From the NCBI GenBank assembly GCA_030324005.1, contig JARDVH010000124.1:22844085-22908084 (forward strand): a DNA stretch of 64,000 nucleotides, in the 5' to 3' direction. The stretch comes from Negaprion brevirostris (taxonomy: Eukaryota). This document shows, one piece after another, positions 1 to 19,600 of this stretch (position 1 is the first letter of the stretch; each line of letters starts with the position of its first letter). Under the pieces are notes generated by a model. It searched no databases. It was not told the origin of the DNA and saw only the letters and a program-made list of their open reading frames with translations. The position numbers were made by a program, and so were the translations under genes.

Positions 1-1105
1 CAAGGGTGCCACAAAACGAGCGAGAGCACACTCGTATGCGAGTCTGCCACAGAACGAGAGAGGGAGATCGCTCGCGCACGAGGGTGCCACAGAACCAGAG
101 AGTGCACAAAGGTGCCATAGAATGAGCGAGAGAAAGCACATGCTCACACGAGGTGCCACAGGATGAGTGAGAGAGCGCGCTCACGCGCGAGGGTGCCACA
201 GAACGAAAGACAGAGAGAGCACTCGCGTACAACAGTGCCACAGAACGAGCGAGAGAGTGCGCTCATGCACGAAGGTGCCACAGAACAAGCGAGAGAGCGC
301 GAGCATTCACGGACAAGGGTGCAACAGAGACAGAGAGAGAGCGCTCACATGCGAGTGTGCCACAGAACAGAGAGCGTGCTCACACGAGGGTGCCAGAGAA
401 CAAGCGAGAGCGAGCGCTCACATGCAAGGATGCCACAGAATGAGTGAGTGCACAAGGGTGCCCCAGAACGAGCAAGAGACCACGCGAGGGTGCCACAGAA
501 CAAGCCGAGAGAGAGGGCACTTGCACACAAGGGGTGCCACAGAATGAGCGAGAGAGAGAGAGACAGAGACAGACAGCACTCACACGCGAGAGTGCCACAG
601 AACGGGCAAGAGAGACCTCACTCGTGCAACAGTGCCACAGAACGAGAGAGTGCGCTCGTGTGCGAGGGTGCCATAGAACAACCAAGACCACGTGAGGGTA
701 CCACAAAACGAGCAAGAGATTGCACTCATGCGCAAGTGTGCCAAGGAACGAGCGAGAGACCACATGAGAAAGAGCAGGTGAAGGTGCCACAGAATGAGAT
801 CGTGCGCTCGTGCGTGAGGGTACCAGAAAAAGAGAACGCGCGTGCTCGGGTGCCACAGAACAAGAGCCCACGTGAGGATGCCACAGAACAAACGAGAGCA
901 TGCTCACATGCCAGGGTGCCATAGGACAAACAAGAGAGCGTGCTCACACGCGAGGGGGCCACAGAACGAGGATTCGTGCACAAAGGTGCTACAGAACAAG
1001 CTTGAGTGCGCGCGAGGGTGCCACAGAACGAGGGGGTGAGTGCACTCATGCGTGAGGGTGCCACAGAACAAATGAGAGCACTGGCACGCGAGGGTGCCAT
1101 GAAAT
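1..1105. repeat. Degenerate GC-rich minisatellite: about 30 copies of core GGGTGCCACAGAAC with variable GA/GC-rich linkers, period about 28-58 bp
   Basis: Core visible at about 5, 82, 191, 273, 488, 532, 848, 1016, 1056 and elsewhere. The ORF track shows repeating RVPQNE / GCHRT / GATE peptides in all frames. Runs off the left edge. Confidence 0.9.
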
Positions 1106-3677: not shown

Positions 3678-3810
3678 CTGTTTTGGGGTCCACATCTGCT
3701 GGTAAGTGTGGTGGAGGGTTACCTGGTGTGAAGTGTTCATTGCTGTATGTTATCAGTGGCGTTAACGGGTGGACGTGATGGGGATGTTGCACAACGGGTA
3801 CTTTGTTAGA
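3678..3810 (-). CDS. TCF7L2: TCF7L2 internal coding exon (133 nt, phase 0 in, phase 1 out): [44 protein letters not shown](G)
   Basis: Manual minus-strand translation matches the human TCF7L2 peptide as recalled. TCF7L1 (HHMHPL..NDHFSPGSPPTHL) and LEF1 (QPSHAVHPL) differ. Acceptor ctcctttcctgtctttcttttggcag with CTAAC branch point at 3844-3840. Donor CAG|gtaggt at 3678/3677. Confidence 0.97.
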
Positions 3811-11370: not shown

Positions 11371-14056
11371 GTGTTTCAGGTTGACAAATTCCAGCAGTAC
11401 AAGACATCTGCCAAGCATGTGACCTGATAAATAGCAGCACTGAGGCTCAAATCCAAGTATTCATTTCAGTATAAAACAGAAGTCAGTCGTGTGCGAGCAA
11501 GAAAAACTGAGGGGGAAAAAAGACAATGGGACAATTTTATAAATGTACACTAAAAGTTTACCTTTTTTTGTAATGATTACATTCGCATGGCCTTCAAAAC
11601 ATATGAAAATTGACGACAGTACCTTTGTGGCTATCATTCTGCCTACAGCTCCTCTCAGTAACATTAACGTAGCTTCAATCAGTGAAATTACCATATTAAG
11701 TGATTAAGCAACAAAATATAGTAGAGGCCTCTTAATGGGAACACCCGCATGGAGAGCAAAATGTTTCCTTTATCCAATTACTACTAAACAAATATAAAAA
11801 TCTTGAGTGGCAATCAAGTGCATATTGGAGGTGTCAAAAACTGAAGTCATTAATTGATCTTTAATAGCAGATTTGCAATATAGGGAAGACGTGGAACTAT
11901 TTCAGTGTTTGTTAGAATTGCATTCATCCGACACAATTAAAAAGCAGCCTGATCAATTTCCATCGCAAATGGTCCTAAGCACTTCCTTAAGCAGATTTAT
12001 CTACTACTTCTGTTTATCTCTCCAGATTCAATCATGTTGCAGCTTTGCAACATCAGGCCAAAATGTTCACCACAAACCATCAGTTTTGTCATTAGGGTAC
12101 ATTAAGATTTAAAAACCAGTCATGAAGTGAATGCACCCTCTCAATTAATAAATAATTTGACTGTATCAGGTGTAGTCTACCAGGCTTAAAAAACAAAAAT
12201 AAAACCTAAACATGTGTGGGTATTTTAAAATGCGAGGGCAAGGGGGTGGGAGGAGTAAGGGTGCACGGGTGGGACAAATCAAAATATAGCAAGAAAGAGA
12301 CCTAACAAAGGTAGATTCAATTTTATAAAATGATAGATACTATACTTAATGTGTTTAGAAAATTTAACTCATGTCCACAATGATGCAACTTCATACCACT
12401 TCAAAAAATTGTGCTTTTTTAAATACCATTAAAATATAATATGCAATTTGAAACTTTCGGACATTATTACTTCAACATCAACAAGTTCTATAAAGAGTTA
12501 TTGCACATCATGCTTAATGCTTTAACCAATTCACACAGGAATGCTAACGGTTTGCTGTTAAAAAAATGTCCCACAGGACACTCGACACGTTTGCGTATTT
12601 GTTATTCAAATACCAGCAAATACCAAGTATGAAATGACAGTGAAGTACAACAGTGATATAAAAATGTTTAGTTGCTTAATTATAATGGAGGAGGGGAAAT
12701 CACAGGGAATGGTTATCAATAAAATAATAAAATATCAGCTTTAAAATGTTCGTTTTATTTGTTCTGGTGGTATGTTCAGAACATCTGGCACTAATTTTGT
12801 TCATAGCAGGGAAAAGACAGCCCCACAGCAGTGGAATACATATACAAATGAAAACCTCAACCTATATACATATTTAAGAAAAACATCAGGATTTGTTTTT
12901 AAATCCAATCAGAACGCATAATATTAGACCAAATCGTCATTTGGGTACATTCTAAAATATCATTGAATGGAAGGCTTTTGTTACACCACCCCACAGTGTA
13001 CAAAAACATGCCAAAACCTCAAAAGTGAGGTTTTCCTGCAAACTCAAAAAGACTGTTCAGAAATGCTCCACATTCTCCTTTATAAGCATTTAAGAAAATC
13101 TTTCGCTCCCTCGCAAAAATCTAAATGAAAATGAGCACATTCGAGAACACCAAACTTGCTGTCTACAAGATTCTACAATTACCTGTTATATCTGAAGTGC
13201 GCCACGCTTCTAATAATTTATTTAAGCCATTTTTTTTTTTAAAACATACACTTCAAATAAGTTAACCTTCAATATAGCAAATCATTGCGTGCAATCTGGT
13301 CAGCAATAACGGATAATGTATTTAAGGTTTTAAAGAGAAAGAATATAGGGCAGGGAGTAAATTATTCTATAGTGTTAGCAATACTTCTTTTGAATACGTA
13401 AAGCATTTTGGTTGAAGATGATAAATTAAAACACTGCTTTTTAGGATTCAACGGAAGATAATGTAACAGTTAGTTAAGAAAAAACACAACCTTTTCTCTA
13501 CTACGTCCTTCAAAATGACATGCATTGATTTTTATTTAGAAAGTCTCTGTTATATATTTGGTTTTGTACATCACTTGCACACTGTTGCTTTCGAAATAGC
13601 TTCGACAATTGAGCCACGGAAGCAACTCTACCTCCAGACATTTGAGTATATTTCACTTAAATTTTGAAAGTTAAATTTAACTAAATGAAAGCATGACAGT
13701 GGAATGTCGGAATTAATCAGGTACAGTGCTAATATGTAAATTCTGCACTGAAATCTGAGTGCAGAATATCCCATAGTAAGCAGCTATCGAGAAAAATAAA
13801 TCAGTATTGAGCTGGTTAAATCAACTTTTTTGAAGAAATCCCAATGTCATGCTGCCTGCAATTGGATTTTCCTTTTTTGTTTCTTCTTCACAGACAGATT
13901 CTTCTGAAAGCAGCAACACAAAGGTCACAGTTTCAAGTATTGGATAGAAGGTCGCTTGCCTTAACTGACCACCTCTTAACCACAGTAACTGGCCTTATCT
14001 GAAGCCCATCGAGTGAAATAAAACACAAACGTGCACTGTAGCATATGGTAACTTAC

Positions 14057-14179
14057 CCAGCTGTTTAGATTGAGATGCCAGCAACCAAACTGATGGAGAA
14101 AGGAGAACCCAGAGGCTAGCGTTCCTCCTTTATTGTTCCCTTCTTCCATTCCCAGCAAAATCGCATCCCTCGGGTACAT
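14057..14179 (-). CDS. TCF7L2: Putative alternative first coding exon of a truncated (dominant-negative type) TCF7L2: MYPRDAILLGMEEGNNKGGTLASGFSFLHQFGCWHLNLNSW, spliced in frame to SNKVPVV
   Basis: ATG at 14179 (-3 A) with an in-frame TAA at 14188-14186. Second ATG at 14149 (-3 G, +4 G). Length 123 nt = 41 codons, ending at the consensus donor TGG|GTAAGT (14057/14056), phase 0, matching the phase-0 acceptor at 3810. Confidence 0.75.
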
Positions 14180-17100
14180 GCTGCTTTATCTTCTGTTGTC
14201 TCTTAACCTCTACAACTTTTCCCCCCTTTCTTTCTTGCCTTGGTGCCGACTGCGCTTTGTGTCTTCGTGGTTTTCCTAGCGTCTTTTTTTCTCTTAAAAA
14301 AAGTACTAAAAAAAATGTCTCAAAAGATCAAAAGCTTTCCATTTCTGTGGCCTGGTGTTTTTAGAACCAACATTCTCATTCAAGTTTGCTGTTAGTAACA
14401 TCTTAGTCCTGGTGTAGTCCTCTGTCTGCCGTGTAGCAGGTACCAAAATTTAGGACACACTCAAATGATAACATAGATCACTGCACCAAAACGCTCACTT
14501 AGAAATGAGTAAGCCCGCACACAGGGGTATAACCCCATGCGTACTATTTATTTTCTTTTCAAAGCCTACAACTCTCCTAGGATTACCAAAATGACAATGC
14601 TGCAACTCTATATGGAAAGGTATCAATAAGTGCAGCAGCAAGGAGACAAGCATTGGTTAAGGGAGCATGATCAACAAACTGTAGCATGCAGTCACATCTG
14701 TGGGAATGTCAAACCCCTCACGCTGAACTTCTGGGGGTAGAGTTGCAAGAATGCTCTATTTTCTTTGACACGGTGACACTATAATATATATCTCACGCAC
14801 ACAGATTCATATACATACAAATATATAAAAATATATGTTTAAAAAAAAAGACACCTGTGAGGTCTTGCCATCAGTCCCAGCAGGTTTTTTTTAATTACAA
14901 CAGTAAACAGGGTGGAGAAAAGGCAAAGCACTAGACCTCACTGCAGCTTCTACTGGCTGACCTCAGCTACACACAATATACAAGAGCAGCTTTTGTATTA
15001 CAAGGATTCTCTTTCCGAGTTGCTCTTTGCATACTGCTTCCCGTCGCTAATTGCATCCCCAAACAAAACCCTCTCCATCTCCAAATTGGGGGCAGCTCAT
15101 ATGTTCCAGAAAATGCTTTTCACAATGGAAGCAAAAAGTAATGAAATGTTCCCATAAACCACGCTCACCCCCCCCCCCCAACACCCCCTCCCACCCCTCC
15201 ACCATGAATATAGGTGGCATAAAGCCCACGATACCCTCCCACCAACCAAAAAAAACACTCAACTTTTTAAAAACAAACTTTACAGGCATTCAGTTTTCTT
15301 AAAAATAAAAANNNNNNNNNNNNNNNNNNNNNNAAGATGCCACACACTTTTCCTTCCCGTCTATCTGCCTGATCAGAAAAGTGACAAGACACGAGAACAG
15401 GGGAAACAAAACACTGTGCGGTTTTTTCCCTCTTTATTTCGTGCTCTGCACTAATCTGGCCTTCGCGTGCAAAGTGTCGGCCAGAAATCTTTAAGGCCTT
15501 AATACCAAAACAAAACCTTTGAATTCCCTTTATATGGTGCAATACAGGCGCTAACAAAGGCAATGAGGCTACAGTTTGACATATAAAAAGCCCAACAACG
15601 AGGCAGCTAATTACATTCCCTCCCTCTATTCATGGTGGCCACCACACTCCAGCAGCTTCTTTTGTCACACGTGCAATTTCTTAAGTAAACTGGGAGTTTG
15701 GTTGCTGATGATGGACAGTTACTAATCATTTAGCACAATGAACGCTAAGTGCGACAGAAAGGATGGGCAACTTCAACACAGATTTCTTTGGGATTGGAGG
15801 ATGTGAGAAGAAAAAAAAAGGAGCGGGGTGGGGGCGGTGGAAGCTCGCCACACAGACGACGAAAGGTGAACACTTAAAATACCAGATCCTTTCAGTTCAC
15901 ATATTTACCTTGCATCTACTGAGGGAGGGGGGAGGCCGGGGGGAGTTGGTGGAGGGAAAGGCAAAAACATGCTGTGGGAAAGAGAGACTGCAAATCAAAC
16001 TTGCCAACTCCGATTAACTTCAGACATTACATCAGGAACAGAATTCTAAATACTTCCATTACCCAATAGTTTCTTCGTTTCACCCCCCACCCCCCAAACC
16101 ACCAGAAAAGTTTTCCATAAAATCTCAATTTAAAACAAAACACGCACCAAAGCACAATTAACCTAAATGTCATATTAGTCAATTGGAAAATAATGCTTTC
16201 GAGCATTCAGTCCTTCTTAAAAATTTTGCTAACTTACCATTTACACCTGCTCAAATTACGATGCTTCACACTGCCTGAATTCAAACATGCTGCCGTTCCT
16301 GTGCTACAGCATAAAATCAGCCGGCTCTTTGCGATGTGGGCAGATCCACTGGGGGGCAGCACCCTACCTGAGCCACTTACAGCCGAGATGCTGCTGAGAT
16401 AGGGACACGAAGCGATTACATCCAACTCCAGCTCTCCAGGAAAAGATGCTCAAGTTCAGGTCTATTCAGTGAATTACCTTGCTTCATGGGAAAGAGATAA
16501 TGAGATGGCAGCACTCATTTGATCAGAACCAGCCCCAAAAATCACACCAACAGTTTTCAGAGAGGAACAAAAGAACAACAGTTGCTTGCTTTCTTGGCGA
16601 CATTAAAACCAGTTGCAGCCTCCCATAATGTTAAATTGGCTGGTATTTTTGAAGCCAGACCAGAGAGAGAGAGAGAGAGAGACATACAAAAAAAAGTATT
16701 TCCTCCCCCCCACCACTCCCCCCAGGTACATAAAGGCTAAACCTACCGTTTATTTTGCCCACATAGCCAGCTCAGTTTAAGCACGACCGCCGGGGAATGC
16801 TGAACAATGAAATGATTTTGATACATCAATTCAAAGTTTCTTTTTTAACCAAAAAAAAGGCAACTTAGCAAGTTGTGTATCTGAGCTCTAATATTTGCCA
16901 CAGCCAAATGTGGCAAGCGGTTCCATAAAGCTTCCCTGCCCACTTTTGAAGCCTGCGTTACTAACACACGCAGAATGACACCACTGAGCGCCTTTAAAGG
17001 ATACTAGGGAAAAAAAATGACTATTGATCTTCAAATGGTGATAATTGAAAAGATCAAAAGATTAAACAAAATCAAAAAAAATGCGCTGACTTACCATGTT

Positions 17101-19600
17101 ATGCTTTTTTTTGTTACAACTTGGTTGAAATTTCAGTCAAACAAGCTTCATCGGAGATGTCAAATTTTTGGCGGACTGTGATCGTATTACTTCCGCAGCC
17201 TTGCCTCACAATACTTCAGAACTTTTTACCTAGCTTTGGTTTACTTTGAAAGCTGCAGCTCAGCAAACCAGCACAAATTATCTTGCCACCTTCTACAGCT
17301 CTGATGCTTTGGCCGCTAACTTTGGAAGGCCCTTTACTACTGCATCAAAATTAGCATTGTCAAAGCGGTTAATGAATATTAATACTGTATTTGTCATTGG
17401 AGCTGGCCTGATGCTGAACTCCGAGCCATCCATCAGGGACAAGATTAAGAACACAATTATTTCTGACTGACAGGGTCCAAATCTGCTAGATTTTTTTTGC
17501 AAATCTAAAAAAAATAAGAGACAAAAAAAAAACATCTTATGGGTTCCCCCTGGGGACGAACAGTCAGATTAATACACTTTTAATGAAGTGAAGGCTATTA
17601 AGTATGAAGAAAAAGCAAACAAGATGTACAAGTCGAACTTACAAATGCGGCACGGTGGCTGATAAAAATTAAAAGAATGGCATATCTTTTTCGACAGCTG
17701 TCTGAAATTTTTCTTCAGAGCTTTCTGGAATGAAGAAAGAATCTTTCTTCCCAATTCTGCATCATTTGAATAAGGAATGCACTGTTATAACCCACATGGG
17801 ATAATTGTGTCTATCTTGTGTCTTAACAACATCAACTCAAAGACAGGATCCTAAATAATTCCTACACAAATATTATAATCAACACTTCCTTAAAAGCAAT
17901 TGACAATCATGATTATTCTCTCAATTGCATCTGCATGCTGCTAAAAATACTTTTAAAAAATGTANNNNNNNNNNNNNNNNNNNNNNNNNNNNNNNNNNNN
18001 NNNNNNNNNNNNNNNNNNNTATCCCGCTGTTATAAAAGACCATACTTAAAACACATTTAGAACAGCGTCCTAACCTTTTAACGCTGACAGTTTCTGTGGG
18101 AATTTAAGGAGAGTCGTGAACATCGGCAGCAAAAGGCAACTTAGTTCAACCATGTTTCTATAGTTGCTTTCGCAGCTAAATATCACTAAAATTCCCTGCG
18201 TGTAAAGTCATGCTACATGTCTTGATCTCACATAACAGAACTATAAACACCCAGCAAACATCCTTTGCCGCTACTCATATTTACTTTCTCCCCGCCTCTC
18301 TCAAGCTTTTGTTCCCTAGATTTTCATTAAATTTGCACAAGATCTATTTTATATTAGTTGCAGACACCCGCCATGGTGCTCATAGTGGATTCATAACGGG
18401 AGACGGTGGAAAGGTTCAGATGCAGATTTAAAGAACGACGACTATTTGGGCTAAAGTCATTTGAACGGCAAACGCAAAAAAAGTGTTTTGAATTTCCTCG
18501 GCCACCCCTACAAAGAGTAACCCCAATGCACCAGAAACGGGAAGTGTAGCACTGGCCCTTTCCTTGCTCACAGGACTCGGTTTCCTTTCTCTACAGTTTT
18601 AAAACCTATTAAAGCTATTTTCTTTAAACGGCGATTTGGGAAGGGAGGAGGAAGAGGTGGAAGATAAGGGGAAAAAAAAGAGAAAACTGACAGATGCGAC
18701 AGTTAATGCCATCTGACCAGTGAAATGAGGGGGTCTGGGTCAAGCGACTATGGCTGCCAAGCTAATCTACTGCTCTCACTGACCACCCCACTGGCTGCTC
18801 CTAATACCATTAGCAATCCTTAGATGAACATTCTAAATTGGAGTTTTGTCCTCTGACGAGCCAATCTGACCCCGCTGAAACAACCCTAGAGTTTCATGTG
18901 CAGATGGCAAATCTCCTGAAAACATTTCTTTCAGCTTTAAGATTTTTTTTTTCCCTTGCCTGTTTTCTTTTGTCTCGCTCAATCCTTTTCGCCCCTCTCC
19001 GATTTGAGATAAAACATTGCAAAAGCACAAAAATATGCCTGGTTATCTAACCCGGTGCACCCTGAAACATTTCCGAACGATTTATTGTCGGTGGGTTTTC
19101 AGTTAGCTTGGTCTTTGTACAAGTTACTTTAACTCGCTCCTGCAAAAAAAAGAGGGGAGCGAGGAAAAGAGAAATTGGAGGGTGTTTGTGAAAACTGTCA
19201 GGTTTGAAGCTTTCTAACCAAGTGAAGTTAGAGGCTGCTGACTCTGAAGTGGTGGGTGCAGAAAGCATTTGCCTGACAGAACATTTACCGCAGACAGCTC
19301 CCGCTACCTCTACTTACACAGCACGATCACATCAGCCCGAGTATCAAATTAACTCACTGACTTTGAAAGTTATTGATCTGCTATTAAGACACTAGTGAAC
19401 TTGATGAAATCAGTGCTGTAGGTGCAGCGAAGACTTCAAAGTCTCGCACAGACACATAAAACAAGTTTCTTTGATCCTTTTTACGATCCGCAGAGGGTTT
19501 AAAGCCCAATTCTCGATGTGCTGCTCTTCACACTCGTCAGGTCTGATTTTTTTTTTCACCAATAGACAGCTTGATAATGTTAATAGTGCATATTTTAGCA
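14180..19600 (-). promoter_or_regulatory. TCF7L2: Putative intronic promoter region with several candidate alternative first exons
   Basis: No recognisable TE, more CpG and G/C runs than the flanks (by eye). Strong minus-strand donors ATG|GTAAGT at 16238 and 17095. TATA-like TATAAAG on minus at 15534-15528. An internal promoter producing dnTcf7l2 is established in this intron in mouse. Confidence 0.55.

Follow-up and report, generated by a model that had tools for sequence, protein, structure and literature searches.

A likely coding alternative first exon with its own 41-residue N-terminus in intron 5 of shark TCF7L2

The TCF7L2 locus and the putative first exons of intron 5

The DNA analyzed here is a window of 64,000 nucleotides from Negaprion brevirostris (contig JARDVH010000124.1, abbreviated C124, positions 22,844,085 to 22,908,084), which carries part of TCF7L2 on its minus strand. 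Using the shark's own genome, we placed exons 1-3 of the gene at C124:22982885-22981958; they are of the shark type, exon 2 matching shark-type TCF7L2 (P0008/P0013) at 96% vs 88% for the batoid type (P0011/P0018). Exon 5 (about C124:22914775-22914671) ends 6.6 kb beyond the window, and exon 6 in the mouse numbering, which is the common acceptor exon, occupies 3678..3810 on the minus strand and starts at C124:22847894. The latter is identical to TCF7L2 of cartilaginous fishes and follows a normal acceptor at 3810 (...TTTTGGCAG), reading SNKVPVV in phase 0 from its 5' end. The HMG exons lie downstream, and the exons beyond exon 6 are intact in the shark genome. Intron 5 is 66.8 kb long, and it is within this intron, where the first exons of short TCF7L2 isoforms are located, that the 41-codon exon studied here is found.

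Three other features of the contig were recorded in passing. Window positions 45-967, in intron 6, are occupied by an array of degenerate 40-bp tandem repeats rich in GC and purines. A small exon after the C-clamp exons (L004:1889-1779, near C124:22814800) encodes a stretch present in all chondrichthyan TCF7L2 models fetched and absent from the bony-vertebrate ones. Finally, a lone TCF/LEF HMG-box exon, 86% identical to TCF7L2 residues 366-408, lies 24 Mb from TCF7L2 at C124:46904025-46904153 (plus strand); the paralogue on C110 has no match for this exon, which may be a misplaced piece.

The coding part of the putative alternative first exon spans 14057..14179 on the minus strand (C124:22858263-22858141), between exons 5 and 6 and 10.2 kb above the latter (10,246 nt from 14057 to 3810). 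All the elements of the original prediction are present: an ATG at 14179-14177 with an in-frame TAA two to three codons upstream, 41 codons of which the last, at 14057, is TGG, and immediately after it a GTAAGT 5' splice site in phase 0 (14051..14056, minus strand). The predicted phase match also holds, since exon 6 begins in phase 0, and the two exons are joined in frame in 45 predicted proteins of other species. The ATG has a modest context, with G at -3 and T at +4, and no ATG occurs upstream of it between 14305 and 14180. This upstream stretch (14180..14305) is the likely 5' leader of the exon, as judged from a three-frame comparison with amniotes. A genome-wide protein search with the 41-residue peptide returned a single match in the shark genome and no paralogous copies.

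The open reading frame and donor alone are insufficient evidence for an exon, because they do not exceed chance. The 60,190 intron bases of the window contain 15 GTAAGT sites, and at least one GTAAGT closing a phase-0 ATG frame of at least 41 codons appeared in 22 of 100 introns simulated with an order-3 Markov model. We judge the 41-codon exon to be real because of its conservation across species, which is described below.

The same part of the intron contains two further donors, which the original prediction did not mention. Each is an ATG directly followed by GTAAGT, at 17089..17097 (donor at 17095) and at 16232..16240 (donor at 16238), both on the minus strand, and each is the predicted end of a first exon contributing a single Met to exon 6. 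Two or more such 9-mers were found in just 3 of 100 simulated introns, and three of the window's four minus-strand GGTAAGT sites fall in the same 3.1 kb. Isoforms in which a Met is joined to exon 6 are on record in chicken, quail, marmot, and sparrow (P0050, P0052, P0065, P0086). If spliced to exon 6, donors 17095 and 16238 would give the Met-only short isoform, and with these two extra donors the shark would therefore match mouse in having the full cluster of first exons in intron 5. The three mouse guide-RNA spacers that flank the published cluster deletion could not be mapped in the window (4-6 mismatches at best), and thus gave no pairing of individual exons between mouse and shark. About 200-400 nt above the 17095 donor, the minus-strand interval 17251-17500 has the densest TAAT/ATTA words between 13 and 20 kb (seven in 250 nt) along with a TCF-like word, and is a candidate homeodomain-bound promoter element. 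In mouse, the intron-5 promoter is activated by Vax2; the TAAT/ATTA peak does not amount to significant evidence for such activation in the shark. CpG observed/expected is only mildly raised at 13-22 kb, and an Rfam search over 10-22 kb gave no match.

Conservation of the frame across jawed vertebrates

Protein databases proved to contain many copies of the peptide. A search with the shark sequence identified it in 7 proteins among 10 candidates, including TCF7L2 isoforms of skate, lizard, and python that start with it, while 20 of the 7165 candidates scored in one profile search matched, as did 39 of the 8000 scored in another. Among 1.84 billion representatives searched exhaustively there were 30 matches, just one of which is truncated (P0120, after 22 residues, in a record of 341 bases). 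In all, 87 of the 157 proteins fetched carry the peptide, so that orthologous sequence conserved in frame and donor does exist in other vertebrates. Eighty-four of these were parsed, the remaining carriers being the truncated P0120 and two proteins missed by our start pattern, P0148 and P0156, in both of which a 41-residue peptide is joined to exon 6. The length is exactly 41 residues in 79 of the 84 parsed copies and 39, 39, 42, 58, and 59 in the others, always in frame. Exon 6 follows the peptide in 43 copies, the dipeptide V-S in 33, and another sequence or the end of the record in 8. A V-S after the last Trp is what unspliced read-through of a GTRAG/GTRAGY donor would give, which is consistent with a splice site at the same position in those species.

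The carriers are widely distributed. Among fishes they include the little skate, the sterlet, an eel, zebrafish and other cypriniforms, salmonids, and many percomorphs, and among amniotes squamates, chicken, quail, platypus, stoat, otter, marmots, guinea pig, hamster, and deer mice. Isoforms that join the peptide straight to exon 6, all of them predicted gene models rather than curated or proteomic records, come from skate, sturgeon, zebrafish, salmonids, percomorphs, squamates, chicken, platypus, mustelids, and rodents. For named cartilaginous fishes the joined form is represented by Leucoraja erinacea only (P0001), whose cluster has 34 members; the other 14 of the 15 members listed are full-length isoforms. 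No carrier was named from human, Mus, amphibians, coelacanth, gar, holocephalans, or jawless fishes in searches that show one representative per cluster, which makes this a weak observation and not a demonstration of absence; such protein searches are also blind to orthologues that have lost the frame.

Identity to the shark peptide amounts to 25-31 of 41 residues in the named amniotes and 22-29 of 41 in the named bony fishes. The C-terminal tail of TCF7L2 is conserved to a similar degree (53-67%), and exon 5 (29-32 of 34) and exon 6 (43-45 of 45) more strongly. At the DNA level, similarity between shark and amniotes reaches some 35 nt above the ATG, in shifted frames interrupted by stops. The amniote frames upstream of the ATG match the shark DNA in two different other frames, and therefore at least two frame-shifting indels must have occurred within these approximately 35 nt, as against none in the 123 nt below. 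Judged from this comparison, the conserved frame extends from the ATG to the donor.

Chondrichthyan, ray-finned fish, and tetrapod records thus agree in start, length, and donor, and this traces the coded N-terminus back to the jawed-vertebrate ancestor, as originally proposed. The distribution supports the view that the 41-codon exon is a coding alternative first exon found throughout gnathostomes and belonging to a known class of isoform. A few ENA records (P0109 and P0134-P0137) have a mammal-type peptide with changes at the near-invariant positions 2, 5, and 26, the frame and donor being kept; this may reflect relaxed constraint in one lineage.

Constraint on the peptide and competing explanations

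Constraint within the peptide is unevenly spread. In 49 distinct 41-mers, M1, W34, L38, and W41 are invariant, and P3, R4, G10, E12, K17, G19, G24, S26, L27, Q30, and G32 are kept in 45-47 (P3, K17, and G32 in 47). The first five residues are conserved, with a near-invariant Y2-P3-R4, as is a hydrophobic C-terminal third that follows the pattern S-L-x-Q-Q-x-G-x-W-x-L-x-L-x-x-W. The middle is variable and tolerates insertions of 17-18 residues, such as the acidic in-frame ones mid-peptide in P0157 (tidewater goby) and P0130. In 13 of 14 lineages the amino-acid changes are more conservative than the mean of simulations under a neutral DNA model, with P ≤ 0.05 in 5 of the 14 and no individual significance in the other 9, the comparisons sharing the shark branch; the sturgeon and croaker peptides look neutral.

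We searched for resemblance to known motifs, families, and folds. The eh1 motif for Groucho/TLE binding, F-x-I-x-x-I-L, has an invariant Phe and hydrophobic residues at +2, +5, and +6. It does not fit the peptide, in which 12 of the 49 sequences have F at position 25, 31 have L, and 6 have V, and in which position 30 is Q or H. An LxxLL coactivator box, with Leu at its positions 1, 4, and 5, was likewise rejected, since residue 32, where a box starting at L28 would need its last Leu, is Gly in 47 of 49. The peptide has no Pfam family, the skate version scored at best 0.79 in the ESM Atlas, which is below the lead threshold, and AlphaFold run on an 11-sequence alignment returned two helices with a pLDDT of 62 and a pTM of 0.27, that is, no confident fold. 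None of these analyses points to a specific partner. As to origin, the HMM comparison gave no match that would indicate duplication of exon 5 or of exons 1-5, and no copy of the peptide was detected at the three other TCF/LEF loci in 10-20 kb each upstream of their exon-6 equivalents.

Taken together, the intron-5 stretch is likely to be a translated alternative first exon of an internal promoter cluster, joined to exon 6 and replacing the beta-catenin-binding arm with a peptide of its own. That it is a genuine translated first exon we regard as very probable; whether the peptide also alters the behavior of the protein is an evenly balanced question.

The main rival bears on this second point. 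The exon may be translated with the peptide itself remaining passive, selection acting to keep the ATG, an open frame, and the donor, in addition to DNA or RNA elements of the promoter region, in which case the product would be functionally the Met-only isoform and simply add to its dosage. We consider this a serious possibility, if the somewhat less probable one. It accords with the variable middle and its long in-frame insertions, with the weak signal of conservative change per lineage, and with the coincidence of W41 with the exonic part of the donor, as well as with two published observations, namely the large redundancy of long and short isoforms in mouse embryonic thalamus (bioRxiv 10.64898/2025.12.27.696670) and the many interchangeable first exons of the mouse cluster (PMC10208975), as far as the available text of these papers goes. 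It does not readily account for the constant length of 41 residues (79 of 84 copies), for the invariance of W34 and L38, or for the near-invariance of Y2-P3-R4. Moreover, the peptide has been kept for over 400 million years, and with two Met-only donors next door a passive leader of 40 residues need not have persisted that long.

Two other explanations are less likely. The original prediction had also entertained an internal exon of 249 nt (14305-14057), spliced after upstream first exons or exon 5 through a T-rich acceptor, and this proposal fares poorly. The AG at 14307-14306 (14306..14307, minus strand) does exist, with a run of T and a branch-point-like TTGAT about 22 nt upstream, and 249 is a multiple of three; the literature has also considered an "exon 5b" lying between mouse exons 5 and 6 (PMC3825142). 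However, 196 of the 1806 YAG sites in the 60,190 intron bases are as pyrimidine-rich or more so (3.3 per kb), which places this acceptor at background level. Furthermore, a stop is met at codon 4 in the frame of exon 5 and in that of the two upstream ATG donors, so that inclusion would lead to decay or a tiny upstream ORF, and PMC3825142 obtained no evidence that exon 5b, which may or may not be the same exon, is included. We therefore find an internal exon improbable. Least probable is a conserved non-coding element, part of a promoter or enhancer, with an ORF and donor that are by-products taken up by gene predictors: the chance rate reported above, the fact that about 77-88% DNA identity without codon bias would suffice for the protein identity seen, and the invisibility of frame-lost orthologues would all allow it, but it is contradicted by a frame kept from ATG to donor, by at least three independent length changes that are all in frame, by the single truncation among the 30 exhaustive-search matches, by the gain of a stop in 17-60% of neutral simulations, and in 38-60% of those at such distances, and by joining to exon 6 in many independent annotations.

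Under the preferred reading of a translated first exon, the internal promoter cluster would produce transcripts that skip exons 1-5, the 41-codon exon being spliced to exon 6 as in the gene models of other species. By analogy with mouse, transcription from the intron-5 starts would take place mainly in thalamus and midbrain neurons, and the retained HMG box would allow binding to Wnt response elements with no response to beta-catenin, which could result in context-dependent repression or in beta-catenin-independent regulation. That the domain at the N-terminus which binds beta-catenin would be lost, as originally proposed, agrees with the joined skate orthologue P0001, which matches Pfam CTNNB1_binding (PF08347) only at profile positions 138-222 and the HMG box (PF00505) in full. 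The cluster would then yield two classes of protein, Met-only and Met plus 40 residues. Because constraint sits in the first five residues and the hydrophobic C-terminal third, with a tolerant middle, the peptide could tune the short isoform, as a short module that binds a partner or affects stability. We tentatively propose, in the knowledge that this is doubtful, that brain short TCF7L2 is in fact two proteins and that, since the origin of jawed vertebrates, a 41-residue module has swapped in for the beta-catenin-binding arm in one of them to recruit a different cofactor or set its half-life.

The predicted short TCF7L2 of the shark and known systems

An intron-5 promoter and a short TCF7L2 are established in mouse and Xenopus (PMC4963812, PMC3825142, PMC3429047, PMC3468386), the same papers being our source for the dnTcf7l2 or S-TCF7L2 of Vacik et al. 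2011 and its exons Ex1b-e. In the available text of these reports, mouse short TCF7L2 lacks the first 161 residues (PMC3429047), which is the number of residues that precede exon 6 in full-length amniote proteins, and has a mass of 35 kDa, or 35-40 kDa (PMC3468386). Gel size does not discriminate between the two predicted forms, since we computed 31.7 kDa for the Met-only vs 36.2 kDa for the peptide-bearing protein with one C-terminal tail and 36.0 vs 40.4 kDa with another, and the reported bands fit either; the 35-40 kDa range could represent two sizes already seen. Nanopore reads have since revealed at least 10 brain-specific alternative first exons ("exon 5-prime 1-10") in about 6 kb of mouse intron 5, deletion of which removes the short protein (PMC10208975).

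The term "dominant-negative" used in the original prediction is justified in part. Short TCF7L2 represses TOPFlash in reporter assays and is needed for pup vocalisation (PMC10208975). In embryonic thalamus, however, isoform knock-outs shift genes in the direction seen in the total knock-out, which indicates redundancy of long and short isoforms there (bioRxiv 10.64898/2025.12.27.696670). The role of the short protein is accordingly disputed between Wnt antagonist, dosage back-up, and regulator with partners of its own (PMC10208975 vs bioRxiv 10.64898/2025.12.27.696670), and the published deletions, as far as described in the text available, take out the entire set of first exons, whose products are considered a single protein. 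If correct, the two-protein reading would account for gene control independent of beta-catenin in thalamus and midbrain, and TCF7L2, a gene tied to autism, speech delay, and type 2 diabetes, would have one more coding exon that has gone unscreened. A peptide shared from shark to mammal offers an epitope specific to one isoform, one ATG or donor that can be mutated, and a small exon in which to look for constraint and for variants in patients, and its distribution would date the internal promoter cluster to the jawed-vertebrate ancestor. We rate the overall importance as no more than moderate: the class of isoform is not new, and automated annotations already contain the sequence.

The latter point means that the peptide is not undiscovered, and it is apparently uncharacterised in searchable papers. 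Our literature searches found no paper on it, Vacik et al. 2011, which may already describe the exon, lying outside them, and the available portions of PMC6908431, PMC2748888, PMC6772062, and bioRxiv 10.1101/2022.01.10.475593 contain no coded N-terminus of short TCF7L2. In public databases, little skate isoform X18 (XP_055502842.1) has an N-terminus identical to that of the shark at 37 of 41 positions before exon 6, and orthologous 41-residue N-termini are joined to exon 6 in chicken X11 (XP_015144042.1), platypus X23 (XP_028936495.1), and zebrafish X19 and X41; these TCF7L2 isoforms are automated, uncurated models with no function attached. N-terminally truncated LEF1 and TCF7 also arise from internal promoters (PMC4963812, PMC8651982), in their case from a different intron and with no copy of the peptide in the stretches compared. 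The short isoform class known from mouse and Xenopus is here extended to a shark, with one difference: mouse short TCF7L2 is described as a plain truncation, and the available text of PMC3429047 and PMC3468386 mentions no coded N-terminal peptide, whereas the shark exon would code for 41 residues.
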